From: Candidatus Limnocylindrales bacterium
Lineage (GTDB): Bacteria; Moduliflexota; Moduliflexia; Moduliflexales; JAUQPW01
Direction: 5' to 3'
Assembly: GCA_035559535.1 (NCBI GenBank)
Contig: DATMBG010000007.1
Span: 62,001-93,479 of the forward strand
Length of the DNA stretch: 31,479 nt
The stretch's first letter is position 1; each line of letters opens with the position of its first letter. The position numbers were made by a program, and so were the translations under genes. Positions 14,533 to 31,374 of the stretch are shown in pieces. The notes below the pieces were generated by a model. It saw nothing but the letters and a program-made list of their open reading frames with translations, did no database searches and was not told where the DNA came from.

Positions 14533-15165
14533 ATGAAAAAAAAAGCCAGGACTATTTCGTATATGCCTTTAAGGCCCATAGGTTATCTCTTATTTAAAGT
14601 ATATTTCCGTTTAACAGGAATCGGTACCGAATATATCCCTAAAGAGGGTCCCGGGATTATTGCACCGAACCATGTGAGTTATGCGGATCCTCCTTTAATA
14701 GCCGCCGTAACGCCAAGAATGCTCCACTTTATTATGTTACACGAGCATTATTACCATCCCTGGTTTCATTGGCTCTTTAAACGCCTGCCCTGTATCCCTA
14801 TTAGACAGGGCCGTGTGAATGCAGAATCTTTAAAAGAAAGTTTACAGGTTCTGGAAGAGGGTAAGCTGTTGTGCATTTTCCCGGAAGGGGGCCGCACCCA
14901 GGATAATAAACTGATGCGGCCTATGCCGGGAATTGCGATGCTGGCCTTAAAAACTGAGGCACCTGTAATACCTGCGGGAATTATCGGGGGTTTTGAGGCC
15001 TATGGTCCTCATCTTAGATTTCCTCGTCCCAAACGTATAACCATTCGCTTTGGTCCTCCTCTTATTTTTAAGAAGGAGGAAAACCCCAATAAGGCAAGAC
15101 TTTTAGAAATCTCTCAAGAAATTATGGGGCATATTGGGGCCTTATTGGAAAAAAAGGAGAAGTAA
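14533..15165 (+). CDS. plsC: Lysophospholipid acyltransferase (PlsC family)
   Basis: NHVSYAD (HX4D), IFPEGGRT, PVIP. Confidence 0.88.
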   Translation: MKKKARTISYMPLRPIGYLLFKVYFRLTGIGTEYIPKEGPGIIAPNHVSYADPPLIAAVTPRMLHFIMLHEHYYHPWFHWLFKRLPCIPIRQGRVNAESLKESLQVLEEGKLLCIFPEGGRTQDNKLMRPMPGIAMLALKTEAPVIPAGIIGGFEAYGPHLRFPRPKRITIRFGPPLIFKKEENPNKARLLEISQEIMGHIGALLEKKEK

Positions 15166-15167
15166 CT

Positions 15168-15404
15168 ATGTTTCGACTCAACCTTCTTTCTAAAGTCATT
15201 GATCAAGTTCCCAATCGTTATCTTCTAGTGCATCTTATCGCAAAGCGAATTCACCAGATCGAAGAAGGGGCAGCTCCCCTTGCAGGGGAAAAATATAATT
15301 CCATTTTTAATAAGGTCCTGGAAGAGATCATTGAGGGAAAAATACGGATAGTAGAATGGGAAGAGACAACTTCGGAGAAGCAAGAGTCTGATGGAGAGTC
15401 GTAA
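15168..15404 (+). CDS. rpoZ: Probable RNA polymerase omega subunit
   Basis: VPNRYLLVHLIAKRIHQI...VLEEIIEGKI resembles omega motifs; SD AAGGAG. Confidence 0.75.
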   Translation: MFRLNLLSKVIDQVPNRYLLVHLIAKRIHQIEEGAAPLAGEKYNSIFNKVLEEIIEGKIRIVEWEETTSEKQESDGES

Positions 15405-16176
15405 GATCTCCGATACGGAAGTACCAGTTGATAATTCGATTCCCCAGAAAAAGAGAGACGATAGCCCCTAAAACCAGAAATGGACCAAAGGGAATATAAT
15501 CGTCTCTCTTTTTTTTCTTAAGGAGGATTAAACTGACTCCGATCAGAGAACCGGTTACCGATCCCAAAAAGATGGTCAAGAGGGTATTTTTCCAGCCTAA
15601 AAAAGTACCTATCATGGCCATTAATTTAATATCGCCGCCACCCATACCTTCCTTTCCCAAAACAGCCAGGCTTATAAAGCCAACCAGGTAAATAACCCCT
15701 CCTCCGACTAAAGCGCCTATTAAAGACTGTAACACGGAAAGTGGAAGGGTTAGCCAGGCCAGTAAAAGTCCTACGACAATGCCGGGTAACGAGATGACAT
15801 CGGGAATAATTTGATGTTCTATATCGATGAAAGCAATGGCAATTAGAGCCGATAAGAAAACCAAATAAGAGAAAGCCGCAGGGGTGAAACCAAAGGTATG
15901 GAAGGTTAGCCAGAATAGGAAACCTGTTAAGAACTCGACCATGGGATATCGAAGGGATATAGGTTTCTTACAAAATCGACACTTTCCACCCAGAAGAATA
16001 TAACTGAGGATGGGAATATTATCCTGGGGTTTTATACGATTATTGCAATGGGGACAGGTAGAGCGCGGAAGGACGATAGATTTTTTCCTTGGGATTCGAT
16101 AAATGCAAACGTTGAGAAAGCTACCGACTAAGGTTCCTAAGAGGAAAATGTAAAGTTCGATGAGATACTTATCCAT
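15328..16176 (-). CDS. pilD: Type IV prepilin peptidase (A24)
   Basis: GSFLNVCIYRIP, CPHC/CRFC, DNIPILSY, IDIEH, GMGGGDIKL, IPFGPFL. Confidence 0.96.
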   Translation of the reverse strand: MDKYLIELYIFLLGTLVGSFLNVCIYRIPRKKSIVLPRSTCPHCNNRIKPQDNIPILSYILLGGKCRFCKKPISLRYPMVEFLTGFLFWLTFHTFGFTPAAFSYLVFLSALIAIAFIDIEHQIIPDVISLPGIVVGLLLAWLTLPLSVLQSLIGALVGGGVIYLVGFISLAVLGKEGMGGGDIKLMAMIGTFLGWKNTLLTIFLGSVTGSLIGVSLILLKKKKRDDYIPFGPFLVLGAIVSLFLGNRIINWYFRIGDLTTLHQTLASPKLSLPILLSVFFPQ

Positions 16177-16185
16177 AGCGTATTC

Positions 16186-16214
16186 ACTATGGATGATCTG
16201 AGGAGATAAGTCAA
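16186..16214 (-). promoter_or_regulatory. Candidate sigma70-type promoter of pilD
   Basis: Minus strand TTGACT-17 nt-CATAGT, ending 9 nt before the ATG. Confidence 0.45.
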
Positions 16215-16230
16215 GTTCTTTCGTTTGGAA

Positions 16231-16259
16231 AACCCGGTTTCTTTTTAAGAAACCGGGTT
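16231..16259 (-). terminator. 13-bp perfect hairpin downstream of rplQ; REP-like palindrome and possible terminator
   Basis: AACCCGGTTTCTT ttt AAGAAACCGGGTT; only a short U tract on the minus strand. Confidence 0.5.
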
Positions 16260-16309
16260 CTTTAGAATGGTCAGACAGAAAGTCAAGGATTGAAGGAGGA
16301 AAATCGACT

Positions 16310-16711
16310 TTATGTTCCCTTACTCTCTTCTTTCGCAGGCTTGGCGGCTATTTCCGCGTCGACCAGTTCAATAACCGCCATGGGGGCTGCATCCCCGACC
16401 CGATATTTAGATAACTTAATAACCCGGGTATAGCCACCGTTTCTTTCGGCATATCTCGCTGCAAGGGTATCAAACAATTTTCGAACAACTTTTTTATCCT
16501 GGATAAACTGGAGAACCTGCCTTCGGGCATGGAGGGTTCCACGTTTGGCAAAGGTAATCATATGCTCTGCAAAACGGCGCATGGCTTTAGCCTTTGGGAG
16601 CGTGGTAGTAATTCTCTCATGCCGAAACAGCTCGGTAACCAGATTACGAAGCAGAGCTCTCCGATGACTGGCCGTCCTCCCTAGCTTTTTGACTTTTTTT
16701 CTATGCCGCAT
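16310..16711 (-). CDS. rplQ: 50S ribosomal protein L17
   Basis: [34 protein letters not shown]. Confidence 0.99.
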
Positions 16712-16723
16712 ATTCAACCGAAT

Positions 16724-16772
16724 TCAGGAGTCAGAGTGATCTTTACAAACTTTCTGACTTCTGACTTCTGAC
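16724..16772 (-). repeat. Heptamer hairpin (TTCTGAC x3) at the rpsD/rplQ junction
   Basis: TCAGGAGTCAGA ... TTCTGAC TTCTGAC TTCTGAC. Confidence 0.8.
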
Positions 16773-16775
16773 CTT

Positions 16776-17402
16776 TTATTTAGAATACAGCTCGACAATC
16801 AACTGTTCCTGGATTTGAGGAGAAATATCTTCCCGTTTGGGTAACTCAACAACCGTTCCTTTAAAATTAGCTGCATCTAAGGACAGCCAGGGTGGAATAC
16901 CCCGACGTTGAGCAGCGGTTAAGGACTCTTTAATTCTTACATTTTCTCGACTTTTAGCCTTTACCTCGATTACATCCCCCTTAGAAACTTGATAAGACGG
17001 AATATCCACCAGTTTACCATTAACCAGAATGTGGCGATGTCGGACAAGTTGTCTGGCTTCTTTAATAGAGCTTGCAAACCCCAGGCGATGAACCACGTTG
17101 TCCAGACGCCGTTCTAAGGAGATCAATAAAGCAGCTCCGGTAACTCCCTTTTGTTTGGCCGCTTTTTGGAAATAACGTCTAAATTGTTTTTCTAAAACCC
17201 CGTAAATCCTTTTCACTTTCTGTTTTTCACGCAAGCGAATCCCGTAATCAGATACCTTAGATCGGCGTTGTCCGTGCTGACCTGGTGGATAATTTCGCCT
17301 TTCTATGGGACACTTATCGGTAAAACAGCGTTCTCCCTTTAGATAGAGCTTCATTCCTTCCGCTCTACAAAGCTTACATACAGGACCGGTATAACGTGCC
17401 AC
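16776..17402 (-). CDS. rpsD: 30S ribosomal protein S4
   Basis: [35 protein letters not shown] start with GGAGG. Confidence 0.99.
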
Positions 17403-17419
17403 TCCTTCCTCCGAAACTG

Positions 17420-17495
17420 AATAGGCAATAGGTAACAGGCCCTAGATCGTGAATTGTCTTTTCCTACCCACGGTCTACGGCTTGCTACCCATTAC
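17420..17495 (-). repeat. Heptamer hairpin, rpsK/rpsD
   Basis: AATAGGC AATAGGT AACAGGC...; arms 17425-17453 / 17467-17495. Confidence 0.75.
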
Positions 17496-17499
17496 TTTT

Positions 17500-17889
17500 T
17501 TAAACACGTCGTCTTTTAGGGGGCCTGCAACCATTATGAGGAATCGGTGTTACATCCTTGATGGCTTTAACTTCCAATCCCACAGCCTGTAAGGATCTTA
17601 TGGCCGCTTCCCTTCCGGCTCCAGGCCCTTTTACATAAACTTCTACCTGGCGCATCCCCAGGTCGAGGGCTTTTTTTCCACAATCTCGAGCTGCCATCTG
17701 GGCAGCAAAAGGGGTATTTTTTCGAGATCCCTTATATCCTAAACTGCCGGCACTTGACCAGGTGATAACATTCCCCTCTAAATCGGTAATGGTAACAATG
17801 GTATTATTAAAACTACTCTGAATATGGGCAATACCCTTCTCGATATTTTTTAATTCCCTTTTTTTCTTTTTGGCCCCTTTTTTTCCCAT
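17500..17889 (-). CDS. rpsK: 30S ribosomal protein S11
   Basis: [39 protein letters not shown]. Confidence 0.99.
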
Positions 17890-17900
17890 ACTTAGGGTAC

Positions 17901-17968
17901 TACGCAAAGCGTAATCTGTAGGGCTTTCTAGATCCTACTTTCTGAACTCATTCATTACGCCTTACGTA
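17901..17968 (-). repeat. Heptamer hairpin, rpsM/rpsK
   Basis: TACGCAAAGCGTAAT (17901-17915) / ATTACGCCTTACGTA (17954-17968). Confidence 0.8.
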
Positions 17969-17980
17969 TTCCATCTTCTA

Positions 17981-18364
17981 TTATTTCTTTTTGAGCTGTT
18001 TACGCTTACCTCCAATAGTTCGTCGGGGTCCTTTGCGGGTTCTTGCATTGGTACTCGTCCTCTGACCACGAACCGGAAGTCCTCGTCGGTGACGTAAACC
18101 TCGATAACAACCGATATCCATGAGGCGTTTTATATTCATAGCGACTTCCCTGCGTAAGTCCCCTTCTACTTTATATTTTTCATCGATTATTTTTCTCAGC
18201 GTAACGACTTCTTCGTCGCTTAACTCACCGACCTTTTTATTAAAATCAATTCCGGCTTCTTTTAAAATTTTTTGTGCAGAAGGACGACCGATCCCATAAA
18301 TATAGGTCAAACCGATTTCTACTCTTTTATTCTTCGGTAGATCAATCCCGGCTATGCGTGCCAA
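17981..18364 (-). CDS. rpsM: 30S ribosomal protein S13
   Basis: [29 protein letters not shown] start. Confidence 0.99.
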
Positions 18365-18387
18365 AGTTATAACCTCTCCTTAACTTT

Positions 18388-18448
18388 GGGGCTTGAGACT
18401 TGAGACTTGAGACCGGACGCCGGTCTCTGACCTCTGGCCTCTTGCCTC
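18388..18448 (-). repeat. Heptamer hairpin, rpmJ/rpsM
   Basis: TTGAGAC x3 CGG acg CCGGT CTCTGAC CTCTGGC CTCTTGC CTC. Confidence 0.85.
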
Positions 18449-18459
18449 TAAGAAATTTT

Positions 18460-18573
18460 TCACCCCTGTTTTTGTTTATGCCGAGGGTTCTCACAAATGA
18501 CCCTTACGACACCTTTTCGTTTGACAATCTTGCATTTATCACAGATTTTTTTTACGGAAGCTCGAACTTTCAT
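18460..18573 (-). CDS. rpmJ: 50S ribosomal protein L36, Zn-ribbon type (absent from the ORF track)
   Basis: Manual translation [37 protein letters not shown]. Confidence 0.99.
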
Positions 18574-18579
18574 AATCTG

Positions 18580-18710
18580 AAACCGTCTGGACACCAAGAA
18601 CGTCAAACAGTAAGCACTACCGTCAGATGGTTGCTTGAACTCTTTTTCTCCCCAGGTCTCTGGATCTGTTCCAGCCTTTGCCCCTGGCGTCCTTGGTGTC
18701 CAGACAGTTT
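18580..18710 (-). repeat. 26-bp inverted repeat, infA/rpmJ
   Basis: AAACCGTCTGGACACCAAGAACGTCA (18580-18605) / TGGCGTCCTTGGTGTCCAGACAGTTT (18685-18710). Confidence 0.9.
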
Positions 18711-18712
18711 AC

Positions 18713-18931
18713 CTATTTATGTCGATAAATAATTCGTCCCCGGGTTAAATCATAGGGAGAAAGTTCAACGGTCACTTTATCTCCAGGTAATATTCGAATA
18801 AAGTGTTTACGCATTTTACCCGAAATATGGGCTAAAACTTTATGTCCGTTATCCAGTTCAACCCGGAACATAGCGTTGGGGAGCGGTTCTACCACCGTCC
18901 CTTCCACCTGTATGGCTTCTTCTTTTGGCAT
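18713..18931 (-). CDS. infA: Translation initiation factor IF-1
   Basis: [27 protein letters not shown]. Confidence 0.99.
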
Positions 18932-19016
18932 AAATTTGTTTGCTTATCAAATCCTTTAAATAATATAAGATAGATCGAGATAACTACTGAATAGGGTGAT
19001 ATAGCAATATAATTTT

Positions 19017-19769
19017 TTAATCCAGATTCGTCAATATTTCAGGCCCATTTTCTGTAATCGCAATGGAATGTTCAAAGTGGGCGGATAAACTTCTATCTTG
19101 CGTGACAGCCGTCCATTTATCTTCTAATATTTCAACTTCTGGACCTCCCATGTTTACCATGGGCTCTATGGCCAATACCATCCCGACTCTCAGCCGTTCT
19201 CCTTTACCCGGTGTACCAAAATTAGGGACTTGAGGGTCTTCATGGAGTTTTCTACCTATTCCATGTCCTACAAAATCCCTTACCACCGAGAAGGAGTTCT
19301 TTTCGACGTGGGATTGAACGGCATAAGAAATATCTCCTAACCGATTCCCGGGGTAAGCCTGTTCAATCCCTTTGTAGAGGGCTTCCTGGGTGACTTGAAG
19401 AAGTCTCTCAGCCTCTGGAGAGATTCTTCCAACTGGAACTGTCAGAGCAGCATCTCCATAGTAATTATCAACAACCACGCCTACATCGAGACCTATAATA
19501 TCTCCCGATTTAAGTTTTCGAGAGGAAGGAATTCCATGGACCACCTGTTCATTAACCGACGTACAGATATAAGCTGGATAGTTTCGATACCCCTTAAAAG
19601 CCGATTTAGCCTTTCTTTTCTTCAGCCAGTCTTGGGCAAAGGCATCTAACTCCGCGGTCGTTATTCCCGGGGCAACTAATTTTATTAACTCTTTTAATAA
19701 TTCAGCAACAAGTCGGCAACTTACCTTAATTTTATTTATCTCTTCACGAGATTTTAAAATAACTCCCAT
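19017..19769 (-). CDS. map: Type I methionine aminopeptidase
   Basis: CTSVNEQVVHGIP, GHGIG, AIEPM, SAHFEHS. Confidence 0.98.
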   Translation of the reverse strand: MGVILKSREEINKIKVSCRLVAELLKELIKLVAPGITTAELDAFAQDWLKKRKAKSAFKGYRNYPAYICTSVNEQVVHGIPSSRKLKSGDIIGLDVGVVVDNYYGDAALTVPVGRISPEAERLLQVTQEALYKGIEQAYPGNRLGDISYAVQSHVEKNSFSVVRDFVGHGIGRKLHEDPQVPNFGTPGKGERLRVGMVLAIEPMVNMGGPEVEILEDKWTAVTQDRSLSAHFEHSIAITENGPEILTNLD

Positions 19770-19776
19770 TTTTCAA

Positions 19777-20442
19777 CTACCCTTCCTTTTTTATTTTTGA
19801 AAATATGGCATCCTGGATACTTTTGAAAACATCTTCTATGGTCCGTGCCCCTCCGTCTATGGAGATCAAGGCGCTTTTTTCCCAGTAATATTCTATCAAA
19901 GGTTTAGTCCGGGCGCGATAGACCTCCAACCGTTTCCTTACCGTTTCTTCCTTATCGTCCTCTCGCTGGTATAAAGGGCCTCCACACTTATCACAAACTC
20001 CTTCTTGTAGGGGAGGGTTAAAAATTACGTGAAAGGTTTCTCCACAATTCCGACATACCCTTCTGCCGGAGACTCTTTTGATAAGTTCTTCTTCCTGGAG
20101 ATAAATATTAATCACGGCATCTAGATAGAGACCTCTCTGCCTGAGAATCTCATCCAGAGCCACAGCTTGCCAGATAGTCCTCGGAAACCCATCCATCAGC
20201 CATCCTTTCTGGCAATCCACCTCTTGAAGCCGATCTTTAATGATACCGATCATAATTTCATCTGGAACCAGTTCTCCCTTTTCCAAATAAATTTGGGCTT
20301 TTTTTCCAAGAGGAGTCCCTTCTTTGACGGCTTGTCTTAAAATATCTCCGGTAGAGATTTGAGGTATGTTATAGGTTTTGGAAAATAATTTGGCCTGTGT
20401 CCCTTTACCGGCTCCCGGGGGGCCCATGAAAATTAGGTTCAT
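19777..20442 (-). CDS. adk: Adenylate kinase with Zn-binding LID
   Basis: GPPGAGKGTQA, STGDILR, DGFPRT, CRNC/CDKC. Confidence 0.99.
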   Translation of the reverse strand: MNLIFMGPPGAGKGTQAKLFSKTYNIPQISTGDILRQAVKEGTPLGKKAQIYLEKGELVPDEIMIGIIKDRLQEVDCQKGWLMDGFPRTIWQAVALDEILRQRGLYLDAVINIYLQEEELIKRVSGRRVCRNCGETFHVIFNPPLQEGVCDKCGGPLYQREDDKEETVRKRLEVYRARTKPLIEYYWEKSALISIDGGARTIEDVFKSIQDAIFSKIKKEG

Positions 20443-20449
20443 TTAACGG

Positions 20450-20539
20450 CCGCCCGCTGCCTATTGTTTAGTAAAGACGTTACCTATGACTTCTCTACAG
20501 ACAACGGACAACGGACAACAGACAATGGACCACGGATAG
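20450..20539 (-). repeat. Heptamer tandem array and G-U-rich complementary arm, secY/adk
   Basis: CAGACAA CGGACAA CGGACAA CAGACAA TGGACCA CGGATAG (20498-20539) versus CCGCCCG CTGCCTA TTGTTTA (20450-20470). Confidence 0.85.
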
Positions 20540-20544
20540 TCCTC

Positions 20545-21852
20545 CTACCTTCTTCCTCGAAGCCTTCCTTTTTTCATAAAACCTTCATAATGCCGAGTCA
20601 AGAGATGGGACTCGATTTGCTGTACGGTATCCAGGGCAACACCTACAACGATTAAAAGGGCCGTACCTCCAAAGAAGAAAGGAACATTCATGGTTGTTAT
20701 CAGAAGTTCAGGAAGTATGGCAATCAAGGCCAGGAAGATAGCTCCGGCTAAAGTAATTCGCGTAAGTACCGAATCAATATACAGGGCGGTTTTCTTTCCA
20801 GGTCGCACGCCTGGAATAAAACCTCCATACTTTTTCATATTATCTGCCAGATCGGTTGGATTAAAAATGATGGCCGTATAGAAGTAGCAGAAGAAAATGA
20901 TAAAGGCTGCATATAGAACGGTGTGGAGCATATGACCGGGAGATAGATTCTCTGCGATGGCCTGGGTCCAGGGATGTTTAATAAATCGAGCTATCGTTGC
21001 CGGAAATACAATGATGGACGAAGCAAAGATAACGGGAATAACGCCCGGGGTATTTACACGGAGAGGAATATGGGTATTCTGACCCCCGTAGATTTTTCTC
21101 CCAACGACGCGTTTGGCATATTGAACAGGTATTTTTCTTACCGCTTGTTGCATCACGACCACGGCTGCTACCACAAAAATGATAAGTACTAAAATTCCCA
21201 GGATAGAAAAAATTTTCATCTCTCCGATCTGGATCCGCTCGATCGTTAAGAATATTGCGGAAGGAAGTCTATCGACGATACCTGCAAAAATGATGAGCGA
21301 AATGCCATTTCCAATTCCCCGTTCCGTGATTTGTTCCCCAAGCCACATAAGGAATGCCGTACCGGCTGTGAGTGTAAGAACCGTTACGAACCGGAAGCTC
21401 CAACCAGGATAAGGAACCACAGGAGCTCCACCCTGGCTATGCATTCCTTCTAAACCAAAGCTGATTCCTAGGGCCTGGATAGCACTTAGAACCACCGTTC
21501 CATATCGGGTATACTGGGTGATCTTTTTCCTTCCCTGTTCACCTTCCTTAGCCAGCCTTTCCAAATAGGGTACAACTACCGTTAAAAGCTGAAGAATAAT
21601 AGAAGCACTGATATACGGCATAATCCCTAAAGCAAAGATTGTTAGCCTTCCCAGTGCTCCTCCCGAGAACATATCTACAAATCCTAAGATTGTATCTTTT
21701 TGCCTGGCAAAGAATTCACTTAAAGCCACCCCATCGATGCCCGGAGTTGGAATATGGGAGCCAATTCGATAAACGACCAAAAGAGCTAACGTAATTAAAA
21801 TCCTTCGCTTTAGCTCAGGTACTTTAAATATGTTTTGGACTACCTGTAACAA
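20545..21852 (-). CDS. secY: Preprotein translocase subunit SecY
   Basis: IFALGIMPYISASII, WLGEQITERGIGNGISLII, GFIPGVRPG, FGGTALLIVVGV; TTG 21852 with SD GAGGG. Confidence 0.99.
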   Translation of the reverse strand: MLQVVQNIFKVPELKRRILITLALLVVYRIGSHIPTPGIDGVALSEFFARQKDTILGFVDMFSGGALGRLTIFALGIMPYISASIILQLLTVVVPYLERLAKEGEQGRKKITQYTRYGTVVLSAIQALGISFGLEGMHSQGGAPVVPYPGWSFRFVTVLTLTAGTAFLMWLGEQITERGIGNGISLIIFAGIVDRLPSAIFLTIERIQIGEMKIFSILGILVLIIFVVAAVVVMQQAVRKIPVQYAKRVVGRKIYGGQNTHIPLRVNTPGVIPVIFASSIIVFPATIARFIKHPWTQAIAENLSPGHMLHTVLYAAFIIFFCYFYTAIIFNPTDLADNMKKYGGFIPGVRPGKKTALYIDSVLTRITLAGAIFLALIAILPELLITTMNVPFFFGGTALLIVVGVALDTVQQIESHLLTRHYEGFMKKGRLRGRR

Positions 21853-21873
21853 GGGGTATACCCTCTCTGTTGA

Positions 21874-21926
21874 ACAATGAACAACAACAATAAACAATTA
21901 ATTGTTTATTGTTAATTGTCCCTTGT
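21874..21926 (-). repeat. Heptamer (AACAAT-type) hairpin with a perfect 28-bp palindromic core over the rplO stop
   Basis: AACAATAAACAATT|AATTGTTTATTGTT at 21886-21913, with imperfect extension. Confidence 0.85.
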
Positions 21927-22374
21927 GATTGGTTAATTGAACTGCTTCTCCACCGGCTGTTTTAATTTTTTCTAAAGCAGACTTACTAAAAGCATGGGCC
22001 TGGATCGTCAACCGTTTGGTGAGATCCCCATCCCCGAGAATTTTAATCTCGTATTTATCATTTTTTATAAGACCGCGCTGGATTAACAGGTCTGGTGTGA
22101 TCACACTCCCTTCCTCAAAGACTTCATTTAAGCGACCGATGTTAATAATGCTATATACTTTCTTAAATATGTTGGTAAATCCCCGTTTAGGAATACGACG
22201 TTGCAGGGGCATTTGTCCGCCTTCAAATTGAGGTTTAAGTCTGCTACCTGAACGGGCTTTCTGTCCTTTATGTCCTCTGCCGGAAGTCTTGCCGTGTCCC
22301 GAGCCGGGGCCACGGCCTACCCGTTTTTTCTTTTTTCTAGAGCCCTTCGCGGGCTTTAACTCGTGTAACTTCAT
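21898..22374 (-). CDS. rplO: 50S ribosomal protein L15
   Basis: [37 protein letters not shown]. Confidence 0.98.
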
Positions 22375-22378
22375 GTAT

Positions 22379-22452
22379 TGAAAGAAAGGGTGAAGGGTAA
22401 AGGATGAAAAGCAACGTTTATTCATCCTTTAGCCTTCCGCCTTTAGCCTTCA
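22379..22452 (-). repeat. Heptamer hairpin, rpmD/rplO
   Basis: Minus strand GAAGGCT AAAGGCG GAAGGCT AAAGGAT GAA / TTCATCC TTTACCC TTCACCC TTTC. Confidence 0.85.
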
Positions 22453-22649
22453 GTGTCTGGAACCTCTTCAACTTTTAAAATTTTTATAAGATACATCACC
22501 TGTCTCAGCATCCCTCGGATTTCGGGAGTATCTTTGCGAACTACCACTTTATTGGTTTTCGTTAAGCCCAGGCCCCGAAGAGTTTCCCGATGTTTCCTGA
22601 TGGTGCCAATAGGGCTTTTAGCAAGTTTGATGGTAATCAGTCGTGCCAT
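22443..22649 (-). CDS. rpmD: 50S ribosomal protein L30
   Basis: IKLAKSPIG, TLRGLGL, DTPEIRGM; position after rpsE. Confidence 0.96.
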   Translation of the reverse strand: MARLITIKLAKSPIGTIRKHRETLRGLGLTKTNKVVVRKDTPEIRGMLRQVMYLIKILKVEEVPDTEG

Positions 22650-22651
22650 AA

Positions 22652-23170
22652 TTACGCCTCTACTTCTTTTTCTTCTCCTTGTTGAACAGGTTTAGTAGAT
22701 CTATATTCAGCCACCAACAAAGGATCTTTTAAGCTCTCCAAGGCTTTTATAGTGGCTTTCACAACATTATGAGGATTGGTAGAACCGATGGCCTTAGTCA
22801 AAATATCCTGGATACCGGCAGATTCTACCACAGCCCGAACAGCACCCCCTGCGATGACCCCGGTTCCTCGAGAAGCAGGTTTTAAAAATACCTGACTGGC
22901 TCCATATTTTCCGAGAACCTGATGAGGAATTGTCGCCCCTTTCAGGGGAATCTTTATCAGGTTTTTCTTGGCATTTTCTATACCCTTCCGGATTGCTTCG
23001 GGGACTTCATTGGCTTTTCCCAAACCATATCCCACATAACCATTACGGTTCCCTACTACTACCAAGGCGCTGAAGCTAAATCGCCTTCCCCCTTTTACCA
23101 CTTTCGCAACCCGACTGATATGAACCACCCTATCGGTTAACTCTAATTCTTTTACATCGATCCGCGCCAC
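22652..23170 (-). CDS. rpsE: 30S ribosomal protein S5
   Basis: [29 protein letters not shown]. Confidence 0.99.
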
Positions 23171-23190
23171 CTACATCTCCTTTCCCTACC

Positions 23191-23227
23191 CATGGAGTCC
23201 GAGAATTCTAAGAATTCTCGGGCCATG
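23191..23227 (-). repeat. Hairpin, rplR/rpsE
   Basis: CATGG..CCGAGAATTCT a AGAATTCTCGG.CCATG. Confidence 0.8.
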
Positions 23228-23233
23228 CAGGAA

Positions 23234-23599
23234 TTAAAACTGTAAACCACCTTCACGGGCTGCGGTAGCCAGTGCTTTAACCCGGCCATGAAATTTATAA
23301 CCGCCTCTATCAAAGACAACGGCTTTGATATTTTTTTCTAAAGCTTTTTGAGCCAGTATCCGGCCCAAAACCTTAGCAGCTTCAATATTACCGCCATTTT
23401 TAACACTTTCTTTAATTTCAGAACTTAAGGTCGAAAGACCCAGTAACGTATGACCCTTTTCATCATCGATAATTTGAGCATACATATTCCGAGCACTTCT
23501 AAAAACACTCAACCTGGGACGCTCTGAAGTTCCTTTTACTTTTTTTCTAACCCGCTTATGCCGTTTTTTTCTATGTTCCTCTTTAGTCAACTGTGGCAT
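23234..23599 (-). CDS. rplR: 50S ribosomal protein L18
   Basis: [30 protein letters not shown]. Confidence 0.98.
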
Positions 23600-23676
23600 G
23601 GTAAGTAAGAATAAGTCATAAGTAGCAAATAGCAAGGTAAAGAAAATGATTCACGACTTACTATTTACCACTTACC
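23600..23676 (-). repeat. Heptamer hairpin, rplF/rplR
   Basis: Minus strand GGTAAGT GGTAAAT AGTAAGT / CTTGCTA TTTGCTA CTTA...ACTTACC directly before the ATG. Confidence 0.8.
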
Positions 23677-23681
23677 GTTTT

Positions 23682-24218
23682 TTAAGCACCGGCTTTTCCA
23701 ACCTTACGGCGAATACGTTCACCTTCGTATCGAATTCCTTTACCTTTATAAGGTTCCGGTTTCTTAATATTCCGAATTTCTGCGGCTACCTGACCAACCT
23801 GTTGTTTATCAGCGCCTTTCACCAGTATCTTCGTATTATCTCGGACCTCAATGGTAACTCCATCTGGAATAGGGTAATTGACAGGATGGGAATACCCTAC
23901 ATTTAAAGTAAGTACTCTTCCTTCAACCTTTGCACGATAACCGATTCCCTCAATTTCTAACCCCTTACTAAATCCCTGGGTAACCCCGGTAACCATGTTG
24001 GCTATTAAGGTTCTGGATAATCCATGAAGAGAACGATAGCGTTTCTCATCAGATTCCCTTGTAACCAGGAGTTGCCCATTCTGATGGACTACCTTGATAC
24101 CGTTGGGGATTCGATATTCCAATTTACCCAGAGGTCCTTCTACCCTACAGAGGGAATCCTCTACTGTAACCTTAACATTTTTAGGCAACTCAATAGGCTT
24201 TTTACCGACTCTGGACAT
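23682..24218 (-). CDS. rplF: 50S ribosomal protein L6
   Basis: MSRVGKKPI, PEPYKGKGIRY. Confidence 0.99.
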   Translation of the reverse strand: MSRVGKKPIELPKNVKVTVEDSLCRVEGPLGKLEYRIPNGIKVVHQNGQLLVTRESDEKRYRSLHGLSRTLIANMVTGVTQGFSKGLEIEGIGYRAKVEGRVLTLNVGYSHPVNYPIPDGVTIEVRDNTKILVKGADKQQVGQVAAEIRNIKKPEPYKGKGIRYEGERIRRKVGKAGA

Positions 24219-24229
24219 GATTAACAATC

Positions 24230-24274
24230 AACCACAAGCCGTAAACTATTCAGCCTGGTTTATGGCTTGTGGTT
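24230..24274. repeat. Heptamer hairpin, rpsH/rplF
   Basis: AACCACAAGCCGTAAACT / GGTTTATGGCTTGTGGTT. Confidence 0.85.
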
Positions 24275-24297
24275 AATAATTCCCTGTTCGGTGAAGG

Positions 24298-24684
24298 CTA
24301 CCATACGTAGCATAGCACCTCGCCGCCAACTCCCATTAAGCGGGATTCTTTATCTGTCAAAATACCTTTAGAAGTAGAAAGGATGGCGATCCCTAACCCT
24401 CCCAGCACTCGAGGAATGGCATCTTTTCGTTTATAAACCCTGCACCCTGGTTTACTTACCCGTTGTAGATTTGTGATAACCCTTTTCCCCTCGGGAGTGT
24501 ATTTTAGATAAATTCGTAGAGCATTTCCAACCATTTTATATCCACGAATGAATCCTTCTCTCTTAAGCAATCTGGCTATTTCACCTTTTAATTTAGATGA
24601 GGGCACATCGGTATAAGGTTTATAGACCAGATTGGCGTTTCGGATTCGCGTTAACATATCGGCAATAGGATCTGTAGTGGCCAT
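24298..24684 (-). CDS. rpsH: 30S ribosomal protein S8
   Basis: [31 protein letters not shown]. Confidence 0.99.
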
Positions 24685-24696
24685 CTTAACCCATCG

Positions 24697-24754
24697 AGAA
24701 GCCAGAGGCAAGAAGCAACAGGGTTCCCTTTCTTACCTCTTGCCTTTTGCTTCT
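24697..24754 (-). repeat. Heptamer hairpin, rpsN/rpsH
   Basis: AGAAGCC AGAGGCA AGAAGCA A / TTACCTC TTGCCTT TTGCTTC T. Confidence 0.85.
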
Positions 24755-24938
24755 ACCAGCTCGCTTTGATAACCCCAGGTATCTCTCCCTTTGAGGCCAG
24801 GGTTCTGAAACAAATACGACACATTTTAAACTTTCGGATATAACCCCGAGGTCTGCCGCATATCAGGCAGCGATTCCTCTGTCTTGAACTAAATTTTGGT
24901 TTCTTTTTGGCTTTTGCAATAGATGCTGTTCTTGCCAC
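24753..24938 (-). CDS. rpsN: 30S ribosomal protein S14, Zn-binding type Z
   Basis: [10 protein letters not shown]...MCRICFR...[11 protein letters not shown]. Confidence 0.99.
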
Positions 24939-24961
24939 AGTATTTTCCCTAAATCTTAGGA

Positions 24962-25021
24962 GCTAAGGGGCCTAAAGGGTCTAAAGTTAAAGGAAACTTT
25001 AGACCCCTTAGATCTCTTAGC
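24962..25021 (-). repeat. Nonamer hairpin, rplE/rpsN
   Basis: CTAAGGGGC CTAAAGGGT CTAAAGTT / AACTTTAG ACCCCTTAG ATCTCTTAG. Confidence 0.88.
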
Positions 25022-25043
25022 CTGTTAGACACCTCTTATTTAT

Positions 25044-25586
25044 TTATTGCCTGAAGGGCATACCCAGCTCTGCGAGAAGAGCTTTTCCCTCTTCATCGGT
25101 TTTAGCCGTCGTAACAATGGCTACATTAAGTCCCCTGATTTTATCCACTTTATCGTAATTTATTTCAGGAAATATAATTTGTTCCCGAAGACCCAAGGTG
25201 TAATTTCCTCTTCCATCGAAGGATTTGGGAGAAACTCCTTTGAAATCTCTAACCCGGGGAAGAGCTACATTCACCAATCTATCCAGAAACTCATACATAC
25301 GCTGCTTGCGTAAGGTTACCATACATCCGATGGGCATACCGGCCCTTAGCTTAAAACTGGCTATGGACTTTTTAGCCCGTCTTATGACCGGTTTCTGACC
25401 GGTAATAGCCGCTAACTCCTCTGCCGCAGCATCCAGAACTTTAATATCTGAAACCGCTTCTCCCAACCCCATGTTTACCACAATTTTTTCTAATCTGGGT
25501 ACCTGCATCACGTTTTTATATCCAAATTGCTTCATCAAATTTGGAATTACAACTTCCCGATATTTTCTTTCCAATCGTGATTTCAT
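25044..25586 (-). CDS. rplE: 50S ribosomal protein L5
   Basis: [33 protein letters not shown]. Confidence 0.99.
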
Positions 25587-25597
25587 GAAAGTCAATG

Positions 25598-25648
25598 GTA
25601 GGGCGAGACGTTATTCCCCTTTCGGGGTAAAGCACCCTTCTGCCCTAC
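25598..25648 (-). repeat. GTAG-type hairpin with tetraloop, rplX/rplE
   Basis: GTAGGGC...GCCCTAC enclosing CCCC-GAAA-GGGG on the minus strand. Confidence 0.7.
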
Positions 25649-25974
25649 TTATCAATAATCTCTCCACACTTCTTGCATGTTCTGACATTACGGCCGTCTT
25701 CTAATCGGGTTTTCCCAATACGGGTAGGTTTTTTACAATTTGGGCAATTGAGCATTACATTGGAGACGTGAATACCTCCTTCCATCTCCACAATACCACC
25801 CCCTTGCCCCTGTGCTCTTTTTTTAAGGTGCTTTTTAATCAGGTTAACTTTTTCCACAATCACTTTTCCTTTTTTAGGGATCGTTCTTAAAATCTTACCC
25901 GTTTTACCTTTTTCTTTTCCGGCAATAACAGTAACCGTATCTCCTTTTCTGACATGAAATTTGATCCTAGGCAT
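25645..25974 (-). CDS. rplX: 50S ribosomal protein L24
   Basis: KOW motif [25 protein letters not shown]; start is ATG 25974 or GTG 25980. Confidence 0.98.
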
Positions 25975-25982
25975 AACCACCT

Positions 25983-26055
25983 GTATGGGTGTATAGGGTG
26001 TGGGTCTGTGGAAAGTAAGGTATAGATAGTTTTTCTCACGCCCATACGCCCATAC
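25983..26055. repeat. Octamer hairpin, rplN/rplX
   Basis: GTATGGGT GTATAGGG TGTGGG / CTCACG CCCATACG CCCATAC. Confidence 0.85.
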
Positions 26056-26062
26056 TTCTCTT

Positions 26063-26431
26063 TTAAATGACTTCCGGAGCCAGGGACAATATTTTGGTAA
26101 ATTCTTTATCCCGGAGTTCTCGGGCTACCGGACCAAAGATTCTGGTTCCCATGGGTTCATTTTGGGGGGTTAAGAGTACTGCCGCATTTTTATCAAACTT
26201 AATATAAGATCCATCTTTCCTTCTCATTTCTTTAGCTACCCGGACAACGACCGCCTTCACCACGTCACCTTTTTTTACAGAACCCCCTGGAGAAGCCTCT
26301 TTAACAGCGGCCATAATCACATCTCCGACATATCCATATTTCTTATTTGAACTTTCCATAATCCGAATGCACATAATCTCTTTGGCTCCGGAATTATCTG
26401 CAACTTCAAGTCTTGTCTGTGGTTGTATCAT
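26063..26431 (-). CDS. rplN: 50S ribosomal protein L14
   Basis: [37 protein letters not shown]. Confidence 0.99.
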
Positions 26432-26711
26432 CTCCTTCACCCTCCTGTTCCGTTAATTGAGCTTTCTTTAGAATTTTAACTACGCGCCACCGTTTCTCTT
26501 TACTGAGTGGCCTCGTCTCCCATATCTCAACAATATCTCCTATGGAGCATTTATTCTCCTCATCATGGGCTTTAAACTTTTTCGATCTTTTGATCGTTTT
26601 ATTATATCTGGGGTGTTGAATAAATCTAGTCACCTCAACGACCACCGTCTTCATCATTTTATTACTGACCACAACTCCCTGTCTTACCTTCCTTCTCCCT
26701 GGTTTTTCCAT
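26406..26711 (-). CDS. rpsQ: 30S ribosomal protein S17
   Basis: [30 protein letters not shown]. Confidence 0.98.
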
Positions 26712-26729
26712 CTTTGGAAGAGCTTAGCA

Positions 26730-26806
26730 TACTTAAAGTGAGCTAAAAGGTTTTTTTACTTTAGTTCACTTTAAGCAGTTTCGACCCTTAAAAACTTCAG
26801 GCACTT
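26730..26806 (-). repeat. Nonamer-type hairpin, rpmC/rpsQ
   Basis: TACTTAAAGTGAGCTAAAA (26730-26748) / CTTTAGTTCACTTTAAGCA (26759-26777), plus an extra ACTTCAGGCAC unit. Confidence 0.85.
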
Positions 26807-26816
26807 AAAAGACCCT

Positions 26817-27035
26817 TTAGGCCTTTCCCCTGGTCTCTTTCTCCGCCGCCAGCTCCCTTTCCCGAATAATGGTCAACACTCTTGCAAGATCCCGTCGAAC
26901 GTTTCTGATAATTTGTGGATTTTCAGCCTGATTGGTTGCAATCTGAAATCTCAAATTAAAGAGTTCTTCTCGTAAGTCCCTTTCCCGTTCTTTTAGTTCT
27001 TCGTCCGTTAATTCTCTCAGTTCTCGCGCTTTCAC
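26817..27035 (-). CDS. rpmC: 50S ribosomal protein L29
   Basis: [25 protein letters not shown]. Confidence 0.98.
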
Positions 27036-27049
27036 CGCTTACTCCTTTC

Positions 27050-27454
27050 TTACCGTACCACAAATTTGGTTTTAATAGGAAGCTTGTGGGCAGCTAGGCG
27101 TAGAGCATCTCTGGCGAGTTCTTCAGGAATGCCATCCATCTCATAAATGATACGACCAGGCTTAACCACAGCTACCCAATGATCCAGAGCTCCTTTTCCT
27201 TTACCCATTCGAGTTTCCGTAGGCTTCGAGGTGACAGGTTTATCTGGAAAAATACGTATCCACATTCTTCCACTTCTTTTTACTTTTCGTGTGATAGCAA
27301 TACGGGCTGCTTCGATCTGGCGATCTGTAATATAACCGGGTTCTAAAGCCTGCAGACCAAATTGACCAAAATTAAGCGTAGAACCTCGATAAGCTTTACC
27401 CTTCATCCTTCCCCGTTGTTGCTTTCGATATTTTACCTTTTTAGGCATTAACAT
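27050..27454 (-). CDS. rplP: 50S ribosomal protein L16
   Basis: [24 protein letters not shown]. Confidence 0.99.
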
Positions 27455-27499
27455 AGCTAAGACTCCTTTGAAGTTTTCAGGTTAAGCTATTTACCAACC

Positions 27500-28228
27500 C
27501 TAAACCTTAGCGGGTTGTTGAAGAGTTTTTTGACCGGACTGACTTTGTTGACCGGACTGACCTTGTTGAACCTGTTGATTTTGTTCCTTGGACTGATTAT
27601 TCCTCGAAAGAACTTCTCCTTTAAAAATCCAAACCTTGACCCCTATCAATCCATAAGTGGTCAGGGCTTGTGAAAAACCATAATCGATATCAGCCCGTAA
27701 AGTATGTAGAGGAACTCTCCCCTCTCGATACCATTCGGTTCTGGCCATTTCCGAACCATCTAACCGACCACTACAGGAAACCTTGATGCCATAAGCCCCC
27801 AAGCGCATAGCCGACGATACACTTCTTTTCATGGCACGGCGAAACGAAACTCTTCTTTCCAGTTGAAGAGCTATATTTTCAGCCACTAATTGAGCATCAA
27901 GCTCTGCTCTTCTAACTTCATAGATATTGACCTGGATTTGTTTACCGGTAAGGGCTTGCAGACTTTTCTTCAATTTATCGACCTCTGCACCTTTCCGACC
28001 GATGATAATTCCGGGGCGTGCAGTATGAATATTTACGGTAGTCTTCTCAGCAGCCCGCTCGATTTCAACTTTAGAAATCCCGGCATGGGATAATTTGTCT
28101 TTGACAAAATTTCGGATTTTCAAGTCTTCATGGAGCAGATCTGCATAATTCTTCTCCGCATACCATTTAGAGTTCCAAGTCTTAATAATTCCTAATCTTA
28201 AACCTATTGGATTAACTTTTTGTCCCAA
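27500..28228 (-). CDS. rpsC: 30S ribosomal protein S3
   Basis: [30 protein letters not shown] start with GGAGGT. Confidence 0.99.
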
Positions 28229-28244
28229 GCATTACCTCCCTCCT

Positions 28245-28302
28245 TGTTGATTGTTGATCGTCCATTAGATTTTAGTCCCTCCTGGACGATCGACAATGAA
28301 CA
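28245..28302. repeat. Heptamer hairpin, rplV/rpsC
   Basis: TGTTGAT TGTTGAT CGTCCA / TGGACGA TCGACAA TGAACA. Confidence 0.8.
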
Positions 28303-28306
28303 CTAA

Positions 28307-28648
28307 TTATTCCTTTGGTTTTTCATCTAAAATAATGGTAATATGGCTGGATCTCTTTCGAATTGGCGTTGCACGCCCCATAGCCCTTGGTAAATACCTT
28401 CGCTGGGTTGGGCCATCATCTGCAAAAGCCTGACTAATGTAGAGGGCATCCACGTCGGCTTCAGAATTTTCTTCTGCGTTAGCAATAGCCGAGCGTAAAA
28501 TTTTAGCAATGGTACGAGCAACCGCTTTCGGGGAATATTCCAGGATATTCAGGGCTTCTTCTACCGGTTTACCCCGGATGAGATCGATGACGAGTCTGGC
28601 TTTTTGAGGTGAAACCCGAATGTATCGTCCTACGGCTTTGGCTACCAC
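28307..28648 (-). CDS. rplV: 50S ribosomal protein L22
   Basis: [30 protein letters not shown]. Confidence 0.99.
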
Positions 28649-28656
28649 ATCTGTTT

Positions 28657-28735
28657 AAGTGTTCTAAAGTGAGCTAGACGGTTTAAAGTTTTTATGGCTT
28701 GTCATTTCAGGTTTTCTAGCTCACTTCAGGCACCC
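28657..28735 (-). repeat. Nonamer-type hairpin, rpsS/rplV
   Basis: AAGTGTTCTAAAGTGAGCTAGA / TCTAGCTCACTTCAGGCACCC. Confidence 0.85.
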
Positions 28736-28739
28736 TAGC

Positions 28740-29045
28740 TTATTTTTCTGTCCTTTCTCCGGCTTTCTTTACCGTGGTTGTTTTCTCACTTTTCCCGTGT
28801 CCTCGATAGGTTCTGGTGGGTGCAAACTCACCCAGTTTATGTCCCACCATATTTTCGGTTATAAACACCGGAATAAACTTTTTACCGTTATGAACGGCAA
28901 AATAATGACCTACGAATTCAGGAATAATGGTAGAACGCCGGGACCAGGTCCGAATGGGCTTTCTTTCCCCGGTTTGAGCCATTTTTCTTACTTTTCTCAA
29001 CAGGCTTTCATCTACGAAAGGACCTTTCTTAACTGAACGGGGCAT
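28740..29045 (-). CDS. rpsS: 30S ribosomal protein S19
   Basis: [31 protein letters not shown]. Confidence 0.99.
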
Positions 29046-29052
29046 ATTTTCA

Positions 29053-29103
29053 GAAGATAGAAGTCAGAAGCCAGGGATTTTCTGACTTCTGACTTTTATC
29101 TTC
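29053..29103 (-). repeat. Heptamer hairpin (TCAGAAG), rplB/rpsS
   Basis: 22-bp arms GAAGATAGAAGTCAGAAGCCAG / CTGACTTCTGACTTTTATCTTC. Confidence 0.88.
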
Positions 29104-29104
29104 C

Positions 29105-29926: not shown

Positions 29927-29929
29927 CGC

Positions 29930-29995
29930 AGGAAGTCAGAAGTCAGAAGTTAAGATCGTTTTCTCCAGACTTCTGACTTCTGATCTCTGACTCCT
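29930..29995 (-). repeat. Heptamer hairpin (TCAGAAG), rplW/rplB
   Basis: AGGAAG TCAGAAG TCAGAAGT / ACTTCTG ACTTCTG ATCTCTG ACTCCT. Confidence 0.88.
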
Positions 29996-29999
29996 AGTC

Positions 30000-30287
30000 T
30001 TATTCTAAGATCGGGATTTTATCTCCTTCCCTTAAGGTCGCAATCGCTTTCTTCCAATCCGGTCGTTTACCAGAAGTTCGACCTCGCCTTCTCACTTTGC
30101 CAAGAACGTTGATGGTATTCACTTTTAACACTTTGACTGCAAAAATCTCTTCGAGGGCCTTTTTTATTTCAATTTTATTGGCGTTTCGATCTACCTCAAA
30201 GACATATTTATTGTATTTGGCTTTCAGGCGAGAATTTTTCTCCGAAAAAAGTGGTCGTTTGATAATGCTATACACGTCTTTTTTCAT
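30000..30287 (-). CDS. rplW: 50S ribosomal protein L23
   Basis: [29 protein letters not shown] overlap with rplD. Confidence 0.98.
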
Positions 30288-30916: not shown

Positions 30917-30930
30917 CGGTACTCCTGCAG

Positions 30931-31294: not shown

Positions 31295-31300
31295 AATCCC

Positions 31301-31371: not shown

Positions 31372-31374
31372 TCT

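Follow-up and report, generated by a model that had tools for sequence, protein, structure and literature searches.

A heptamer-repeat hairpin in the secY-adk spacer of a Moduliflexota genome: a probable STRR-like element at the site of a proposed split ribosome-binding site

The secY-adk junction

Two genes read from the minus strand, secY and adk, adjoin each other in the 31,479-nt window analyzed here (the whole stretch from position 62,001 to 93,479 of contig DATMBG010000007.1, assembly GCA_035559535.1, a Candidatus Limnocylindrales bacterium that GTDB places in Moduliflexales), and the spacer between them holds a hairpin whose left arm is a tandem array of heptamers. A first-pass annotation of the sequence had read this layout as a split ribosome-binding site (RBS), in which a Shine-Dalgarno (SD) sequence at the secY stop serves adk across the hairpin. 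Our analysis favors, with moderate confidence, a different account: the spacer is probably occupied by a hairpin resembling the short tandemly repeated repetitive (STRR) sequences of cyanobacteria and drawn from a genome-wide family that abuts start codons, the SD-like motif AGGAGG would be a relic or a coincidence, and adk would be initiated without an SD. All coordinates of the element refer to the minus strand and to the numbering of the window (Table 1).

The junction reads GAAGAAGG-TAG-GAGGA-CTATCCGTGG-(TCCATTG TCTGTTG TCCGTTG TCCGTTG TCTGTAG)-AGAAGTCATAGGTAACGTCTTTACTAAAC-AATAGGCAGCGGGCGGC-CGTTAA-ATG, which confirms the coordinates and arithmetic of the layout first described for it (secY TAG-GAGGA-hairpin-CCGTTAA-ATG). 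Between about 20536 and 20497 the sequence comprises six heptamers that fit TCYNTKG, and Tandem Repeats Finder (TRF) reports the array at 20500-20536 with a period of 7, 5.3 copies, 83% matches, and a score of 53. The 3' arm, AACAATAGGCAGCGGGCGGCC, is G-rich and degenerate, with UUGUCCG repeats pairing opposite the G-rich GGCAGCGGGCGGC; relative to CGGACAA, the perfect complement found in perfect-arm copies elsewhere in the genome, the right arm carries A-to-G changes that retain pairing as G-U. The CCGTTAA tail follows, and then the adk ATG at 20442-20440. Removal of 20450-20539 does yield AGGAGGA-CCGTTAA-ATG, as the first-pass annotation had noted.

That annotation was also right that a strong SD lies beyond working range of adk and that none adjoins the adk ATG. 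AGGAGG (20546-20541) stands 98 nt from the ATG and pairs more strongly with the anti-SD than any other site in the region (-10.3 kcal/mol), whereas no usable SD was found beside the ATG, the best duplex within the 3' arm and tail reaching only -5.8 kcal/mol and lying inside the stem. The 3' end of the 16S rRNA is canonical (GGATCACCTCCTTTC) and carries CCUCC. The adk start at ATG 20442 is not in doubt, because residue 1 of the protein aligns to position 1 of the NF001380 profile. For secY, the probable true start is TTG 21852, preceded by AGAGAGGG, and the longest open reading frame (ORF) extends to 21897; this longer frame enters a separate TTAACAA/TTGTT repeat hairpin (window 21850-21925) that has one extra heptamer in a genome of the same genus. 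A scan of 20440-20700 for sigma-70-like promoters returned none, with a consensus that may not suit this lineage.

Table 1. Positions of the secY-adk features and of four further stem-loops of the same operon, in window numbering
Feature	Position	Strand	Basis or remark
secY coding sequence	20545..21852	-	NCBIfam TIGR00967 SecY, 434.6 bits
Proposed distal SD AGGAGG, overlapping the secY stop TAG (20547-20545)	20541..20546	-	followed by A at 20540
6-bp mini-hairpin GGACUA-UCCG-UGGUCC, capturing the final two G of AGGAGG	20527..20542	-	minimum free energy (MFE) and centroid folds
Tandem heptamer array, left arm	20497..20536	-	UUGUCCG-type on the mRNA strand; GACAACG on the plus strand
Main stem-loop, 13-bp outer helix plus inner helices, numerous G-U pairs	20449..20519	-	folding
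G-rich degenerate right arm AAUAGGCAGCGGGCGGC opposite the heptamers	20449..20466	-	sequence
6-nt tail CGUUAA and adk AUG, A/U-rich, partly paired	20440..20448	-	unpaired probabilities mostly 0.43-0.9
adk coding sequence	19777..20442	-	NCBIfam NF001380 adenylate kinase, 322.3 bits, residues 1-213 on profile positions 1-212
Stem-loop before rplB	29936-29983	-	
Stem-loop before rplO	22379-22452	-	
Stem-loop before rpsN	24955-25020	-	
Stem-loop before rpsM	18388-18466	-	

The favored fold and its alternatives

Folding energies were computed with standard parameters, which may not match the growth temperature of the organism. A 136-nt stretch around the element folds at -43.8 kcal/mol (z = -3.27), and none of 200 shuffled sequences was equally stable. 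The favored main stem closes at 20519:20449 and is present in every fold at 37, 55, and 70 °C, leaving 21 nt on its 5' side and 6 nt on its 3' side. The 5'-most heptamer copies are unpaired in the MFE fold, and the final GG of AGGAGG is taken up by the mini-hairpin at 20542-20527, with an unpaired probability of 0.26-0.28 at 37 °C. A split RBS of the kind described for genes 25 and 38 of phage T4 requires that the SD be free and lie about 5-13 nt from the start; the adk fold provides neither.

The 8-nt spacing envisaged in the split-RBS proposal had been recognized from the start as not the best-paired register, and the calculations bear this out. When that register is forced, the spacer alone folds at -27.7 kcal/mol compared with -40.2 kcal/mol for the MFE (a cost of 12.5), and in a 191-nt context the values are -46.7 and -59.7 kcal/mol (a cost of 13.0). 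The remark that the arms permit several registers also holds in silico, where two shifted registers are about 5 kcal/mol away or less: a shift by two heptamers (20533:20449) costs 4.7 kcal/mol and leaves about 7 + 6 nt (about 13 nt) between SD and AUG, which is a point in favor of a split RBS, and a shift by one heptamer in the opposite direction costs 5.2 kcal/mol. On these models slippage between registers is plausible, and adoption of the register needed for the split RBS is not.

Another alternative to the favored fold places the adk start itself in the structure. A closing helix between CAUU and the AAUG at the adk start lies only 1.6 kcal/mol above the MFE, and on it could be built a scheme of translational coupling in which GGUCCAUU (20531-20524) pairs with AAUGAACC (20443-20436) and ribosomes finishing secY melt the helix and free the adk AUG. 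Local folding finds the corresponding extension as a -38.5 kcal/mol hairpin from -88 to +7; the bases of the AUG have an unpaired probability of just about 0.45 at 37 °C; an A-to-G change beside the AUG in the sister species would preserve pairing as U-G; and 14-23 nt lie between the secY stop and the helix strand that follows it, roughly within the reach of a terminating ribosome as judged from the size of the ribosome footprint. However, the helix is weak and is missing both from the MFE folds at 55 and 70 °C and from the MFE fold of the sister species, and hairpins that abut starts are no more often operon-internal than genes overall, as detailed below. We therefore regard coupling at adk as improbable.

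Two other identities were considered for the structure. An intrinsic terminator was rejected, the main stem being followed by CGUUAAAUGAACC with no U tract; a terminator scan lists only the mini-hairpin at 20542-20527 here, and the 4 sites that it found are no more than shuffling leads one to expect (mean 3.2). Rfam covariance models run over 15000-31479 gave no match at E <= 1 except a sub-threshold microRNA (miRNA)-like match on another palindrome.

Conservation of the motif and of the hairpin in close variants

The exact spacer could be compared in three variants: the window, a genome of the same genus, and a contig from metagenomic run X2. Within the order, secY adjoins adk only in the genome of the window and in the same-genus genome; in seven sister-family genomes the two genes are located apart, elsewhere in the genome. 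The same-genus genome is 93% identical to the window across 14.8 kb, and its junction reads GAAGAAGG-TAA-GATGA, with exactly one heptamer fewer (a spacer of 95 nt, compared with 102 nt in the window) and the hairpin otherwise retained. A 40.8-kb contig from run X7 is in the same state, its 7 gaps amounting to one heptamer fewer. The 737-nt contig from run X2 shows 9 differences and no gaps over 468 nt; it reads TAA-GAGAA, with changes at 20545 and 20541, and retains the hairpin, although its depth of 4.6, below 5, means that individual differences may be erroneous (X7 shares the change at 20545).

AGGAGG is thus present in one of the three variants and the hairpin in all three, so that the SD and the structure are not conserved together among close relatives. 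Two of the 9 differences in X2 fall inside the seven-nt motif, the opposite of what constraint would give. Because AGGAGG is found in one variant only while the hairpin is kept, the distal SD appears to be dispensable. The same-genus genome has 30 of the 33 pairs predicted for the adk spacer unchanged; of the other three, one survives a one-sided change, one is broken, and one falls on a gap. The number of heptamers itself varies between close strains (the same-genus genome and X7), as expected of STRR-like hairpins.

A separate observation concerns read depth over the array. In runs X7 and X12, from hot-spring and microbial-mat metagenomes, positions 20497-20538 are covered 300- to 500-fold by many short contigs and the flanks 23-fold; other loci or other organisms in these samples therefore carry the repeat in quantity.

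A repeat family across the genome

The adk hairpin is one of many. With 2 mismatches or fewer allowed, GACAACGGACAACGGACA matches at 75 places in the genome, compared with 3 for the same pattern written backwards, and two tandem TTGTCCG units have 53 strand-specific matches, or about 45 loci once palindromes matched on both strands are merged. Most of the TTGTCCG loci have CGGACAA-type repeats within the next 100 nt, their loops and flanks are unrelated, and many end a few nucleotides before an ATG. TRF finds 451 period-7 arrays compared with 87 in a block-shuffled genome, and 678 period-8 arrays compared with 114. The commonest heptamer unit is GACAACG, the unit of the adk array (32 of 441 period-7 arrays), followed by GAAGTCA (26). 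Octamer arrays outnumber heptamer arrays, the commonest octamer being ATGGGAGT with 125 arrays.

The adk element shows every feature by which an STRR-like hairpin is recognized: a 7-nt tandem unit, genome-wide dispersal, stable pairing, and variation in copy number. A reading as a miniature inverted-repeat transposable element or as a repetitive extragenic palindrome (REP) was rejected, because the loops and flanks of the repeat copies are not conserved and a search of the genome, at 95.8% completeness, detected no Y1 transposase (RAYT, PF01797). A gene for RNase III is present on contig C44 (TIGR02191, 260.2 bits).

Hairpins at gene starts

If a split RBS were at work, SD sequences should stand 5' of hairpins that abut starts, and the genome offers many cases. 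A simple codon-usage model applied to ORFs of at least 80 aa gave 4,201 genes, and we folded the region from -140 to +70 around each longest-ORF start; gene calls and start assignments are home-made, and hairpin boundaries are approximate. Near 1,388 of the 4,201 starts there are 1,412 hairpins of -25 kcal/mol or below, whose 3' ends peak between -20 and +10, and 338 hairpins end within 12 nt before a start. These abutted starts look real, because 245 of the 338 are ATG and the commonest second codon is AAA. The peak of G at -14 to -8 seen in hairpin-free genes is missing from them, and an SD 4-mer at -18 to -4 occurs in 18-25% of hairpin-abutted genes compared with 42% of hairpin-free genes and a background of 13%.

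The missing SD sequences are not found on the far side of the hairpins. When hairpins with a core 0-10 nt before the first in-frame start were excised in silico, an SD 4-mer came to lie at -18 to -4 in 13-17% of leaders, the background level being 13% for a control window and 15-18% for three flanking ones. In a position-resolved profile SD motifs form no peak on the 5' side of the stems, and no window as far as -45 shows an excess. A 5-mer SD core within 12 nt of the stem base is not enriched, occurring at 55 of 424 start-abutting hairpins without an SD and at 100 of 880 hairpins far from a start, and AGGAGG itself is found no more than 40 nt from the stem, on its 5' side, in 7 of the 424 and in 19 of 880 hairpins not abutting a start. 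Among hundreds of candidate hairpins, the arrangement of AGGAGG and hairpin at adk is a chance expectation at the level of about 2%.

The same set bears on coupling. A co-directional stop lies within 60 nt of 232 of 476 start-abutting hairpins, compared with a baseline of 2,114 of 4,141. Coupling cannot be their general role, because their share inside operons is no higher than that of genes overall, and coupling or shunting as a general rule is unsupported. The distance from hairpin to start is broad, 0-30 nt, without a sharp optimum.

The S10-spc-alpha operon

The adk spacer belongs to the S10-spc-alpha operon, in which about 20 of some 29 junctions hold a hairpin that begins directly past the upstream stop and ends a few nucleotides short of the next start; at most spacers of the minus strand between 16700 and 31372 the arms of the stem-loop are tandem 7- to 9-nt repeats. 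As classified by reading of the sequences, and hence approximately, an ordinary SD follows the hairpin at 8 junctions (rplD, rpsC, rplP, rplX, rpsE, secY, rpsM, and rpsD) and no SD follows it at 14 (rpsJ, rplB, rpsS, rplV, rpsQ, rplE, rpsN, rpsH, rplF, rplR, rplO, adk, rpsK, and rplQ).

Several further observations concern this operon. In about 13 of 16 hairpins the 5' arm is rich in purines and the 3' arm in pyrimidines, which gives an identical polarity on either strand. The rpsJ-rplD spacer (window 30931-30985) contains a near-perfect 26-bp palindrome of -47 kcal/mol, the source of the sole sub-threshold miRNA-like match in Rfam, and the likely rplD start is GTG 30916, after a CAGGAG SD, rather than the longest-ORF start at 30979. 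Two genes are missing from the operon: rpoA between rpsD and rplQ (window 16717-16776) and rplC between rpsJ and rplD (window 30979-30986). Single copies of both lie on other contigs (G000:C17:3055-3954 and G000:C13:9680-10291, respectively).

Relatives and the ancestral junction

In lineages of other phyla where secY adjoins adk, 17 of 19 spacers measure -1 to 34 nt, and the last codons of secY, which are purine-rich, often contain an SD. The end of secY in the window, GAGGAAGAAGG-TAG-GAGGA, resembles these purine-rich ends and thereby supports insertion into an existing RBS. That the element was inserted into, or expanded within, a once-compact secY-adk junction is plausible on this comparison, 102 nt here standing against compact junctions in 17 of 19 lineages, and this part of the original proposal holds; its corollary, that the insertion is tolerated through a restored spacing, is unsupported.

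Hairpins at these positions extend beyond the genus. All seven sister-family adk genes, none of which adjoins secY, have a hairpin before the ATG, with an SD after the hairpin in 2 and none in 5. The rplW-rplB and rplB-rpsS spacers of the seven sister-family genomes hold hairpins of different sequence, some with ATTGACA or ATTGACG heptamers; their rpsS-rplV spacer is short (32-37 nt) and has a normal SD. Hairpins thus occur at the rplB, rpsS, and adk junctions across the order, with sequences that differ, and the different heptamer units before rplB in the sister family indicate that the repeat habit is order-wide. In three of the rplW-rplB spacers (L122, L123, and L125, from genomes G008, G007, and G002), ATTGACA/ATTGACG arrays of up to about 10 copies stand directly before rplB.

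RNA structure or repeat DNA

A hairpin made of repeats need not act as RNA. Selfish or neutral repeat DNA, spread by replication slippage or by an unknown mobilizing activity and surviving in spacers, where it does no damage and adk tolerates it, could produce TTGTCCG-armed copies with unrelated loops and flanks, a copy number that differs by exactly one unit between species, a broad range of distances to the start, and strands that fold almost equally often. Comparison of 16 operon spacers with the same-genus genome argues against this: of 422 predicted pairs, 365 are unchanged, 31 are kept after a one-sided change, 2 are kept after two-sided changes (rplF), 18 are broken, and 6 fall on gaps, so that 33 of the 51 changed pairs still pair. 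Changed positions number 56 of 838 in stems and 85 of 554 outside them, and stems thus change 2.3 times slower. Further, the core of the adk hairpin folds at -31.3 kcal/mol on the mRNA strand and at -17.3 kcal/mol on the opposite strand, a gap of 14 kcal/mol that is due to G-U pairs. The persistence of hairpins of different sequence at the rplB, rpsS, and adk junctions across the order also speaks against neutral DNA, as does the failure to find the REP-associated transposase. We read the hairpin structure as being under purifying selection, probably at the RNA level, the genome-wide evidence for strand specificity being modest, and repeat DNA with no RNA role seems to us unlikely.

Interpretation

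The reading that we favor is that of an STRR-like repeat hairpin beside an adk gene started without an SD. The anatomy of the element, its family, its pattern of conservation, and the lack of SD enrichment are direct observations. In the history that they suggest, the ancestral SD would have sat in the purine-rich end of secY, and a repeat hairpin would later have expanded or been inserted there, leaving an AGGAGG 98 nt upstream that adk does not need. Initiation at adk would then take place without a conventional SD at an A/U-rich, weakly paired AUG 6 nt past the stem, as may be the case for hundreds of other genes (about 8%). The hairpin may serve as an intercistronic RNA structure that limits local folding around the AUG, and it is a plausible site for RNase III processing or for stabilization that would set the stability of the downstream message; its strength would drift as repeat units are gained and lost.

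Several points weigh against this reading. SD-independent initiation at adk, and any role in processing or stability, are what we infer from these patterns. The X2 contig is shallow, and the genome-wide counts rest on approximate gene calls and boundaries. Changes from Watson-Crick to G-U pairs show no strong excess over changes to A-C (17 compared with 10). Genome-wide, hairpins of -25 kcal/mol or below number 1,071 in sense and 838 in antisense orientation (the antisense scan covering 4,192 of the 4,201 genes), a modest asymmetry, and the skew inside coding sequence is similar (222 compared with 146); many of the palindromes could therefore be features of the DNA. At several operon junctions (rplB, rpsS, rpsJ, and rpsN), SD-like purine runs stand at the 5' base of the hairpin. 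Finally, the adk leaders of three genomes of a sister genus, g3 (L092:2098-2205, L093:2092-2199, and L096:2113-2220), can be aligned and share a conserved stem of 22 pairs, with a conserved (G/A)AGGAGA exactly at its 5' base and then an SD-less tail of 10-12 nt before the ATG. Judged by its sequence, this leader is a genuine split-RBS-like layout and the best remaining argument for the principle, in a different hairpin at a different locus; its conservation suggests that upstream SD-like motifs may contribute.

How far do these points revive the split RBS at adk itself, with the 30S subunit on AGGAGG at the secY stop and a hairpin register bringing the adk AUG near, as in T4 genes 25 and 38? 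The motif's duplex is the strongest in the region, the register shifted by two heptamers is cheap, the T4 genes supply a precedent (PMC3014915), the g3 leaders carry an SD-like motif at the hairpin base, and some operon junctions have AGGAG- or AAGGAAG-type motifs directly past the upstream stop. Against this, AGGAGG is absent from two of three close variants that retain the hairpin, with two of the nine X2 differences in the motif; in the favored fold its GG is paired and lies 21 nt before the stem, and the 8-nt register is costly; SD sequences are not enriched 5' of start-abutting hairpins; and the distance to be bridged is far greater than in T4. The claim that folding restores a working spacing finds no support in the favored fold, in the variants, or in the genome-wide counts, and we consider a functional split RBS at this locus quite unlikely. 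A broader possibility, which we also hold to be doubtful, is that the start-abutting stem-loops of the order are a selected device for initiation without a local SD, bridging the start to an upstream SD-like run or to the preceding stop in a form of shunting-like re-initiation; adk would then be one, perhaps decaying, instance, and some 14 genes in the ribosomal-protein operon would rely on such bridging.

The adk case illustrates that a striking combination of motif and hairpin need not be a mechanism, and that one sister genome and one metagenomic contig sufficed to argue against a need for the distal SD. The more useful observation is genome-wide: SD-less starts directly behind stable hairpins. 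The anti-SD is canonical, yet about one-third of genes have a strong hairpin at the 5' end, and about 8% start within 12 nt of a hairpin without an SD signal, including many ribosomal-protein genes that require efficient translation. Confirmation of a role at the RNA level would make the lineage a natural system in which to study initiation on structured SD-less leaders and the tuning of operon stoichiometry by slippage of simple sequence repeats.

Comparison with known systems

REP palindromes and the bacterial interspersed mosaic elements (BIMEs) built from them are abundant, intergenic, and transcribed within operons, where they have a role in mRNA stability, and they are associated with RAYT transposases. 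The hairpins described here differ in that no Y1 transposase was found beside them in the genome, in arms made of tandem repeats with unrelated loops instead of one conserved palindrome, and in their position at gene 5' ends rather than 3' ends. Our literature search, limited to particular sets of terms, yielded the four analogues compared below and no description of inverted tandem-heptamer hairpins that abut starts in ribosomal-protein operons.

T4 genes 38 and 25 resemble adk in that the SD is too far from the AUG and a hairpin lies in between (PMC3014915). In gene 38 the structure shortens the distance from SD to AUG from 22 to 5 nt, and in gene 25 from 27 to 11 nt; the structures are conserved among close T-even phages and supported by mutations and probing (PMC3014915). 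Unlike these, adk requires that a separation of 98 nt be bridged, its favored fold does not juxtapose SD and AUG, and its SD is not conserved in close relatives; the 90 nt that the hairpin would have to take up far exceed the 17-nt and 16-nt structures of T4.

In anatomy, the closest studied analogue is the 5' untranslated region (5'-UTR) of hmw in Haemophilus influenzae, where a simple-sequence-repeat hairpin is processed by RNase III (PMC12721329). Its left arm is (AUCUUUC)n and its right arm is G-rich, with surplus repeats outside the stem and a repeat number that varies among strains (PMC12721329). The adk element likewise sets a heptamer-repeat left arm against a G-rich right arm upstream of a start, and RNase III, which may cleave the hairpin, is encoded in this genome. 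The hmw hairpin lies in the promoter-proximal 5'-UTR of one phase-variable adhesin gene, at least 54 nt from the ATG (PMC12721329), whereas the adk element lies between two cistrons, ends 6 nt short of the AUG, and has hundreds of counterparts in the genome.

In distribution, the closest analogues include the STRR of cyanobacteria and the TAACTGA repeats of marine Beggiatoaceae. STRR sequences, such as that between hupS and hupL, are dispersed 7-bp tandem repeats in intergenic and intercistronic positions that are able to form hairpins; their function is given as unknown, with transcript stability and translational coupling as proposals (PMC2670836). The hairpins here share the dispersal, the 7-bp tandem unit, and the pairing; they differ in belonging to another, uncultured lineage, in their units (GACAACG, GAAGTCA, and octamers such as ATGGGAGT), and in systematically abutting start codons, many of them filling spacers of the ribosomal-protein operon. 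The TAACTGA heptamer arrays of Beggiatoaceae lie a few nucleotides from starts and inside ribosomal-protein operons, before genes that mostly lack an SD despite a canonical 16S anti-SD (PMC4679880), and in all of these respects they match what we describe. They are direct repeats of one unit, predicted in that account to be unstructured, whereas the present arrays use many units, are inverted, and form stable stem-loops. Hairpins built from heptamer simple sequence repeats are already known, and the adk element adds another member to them.

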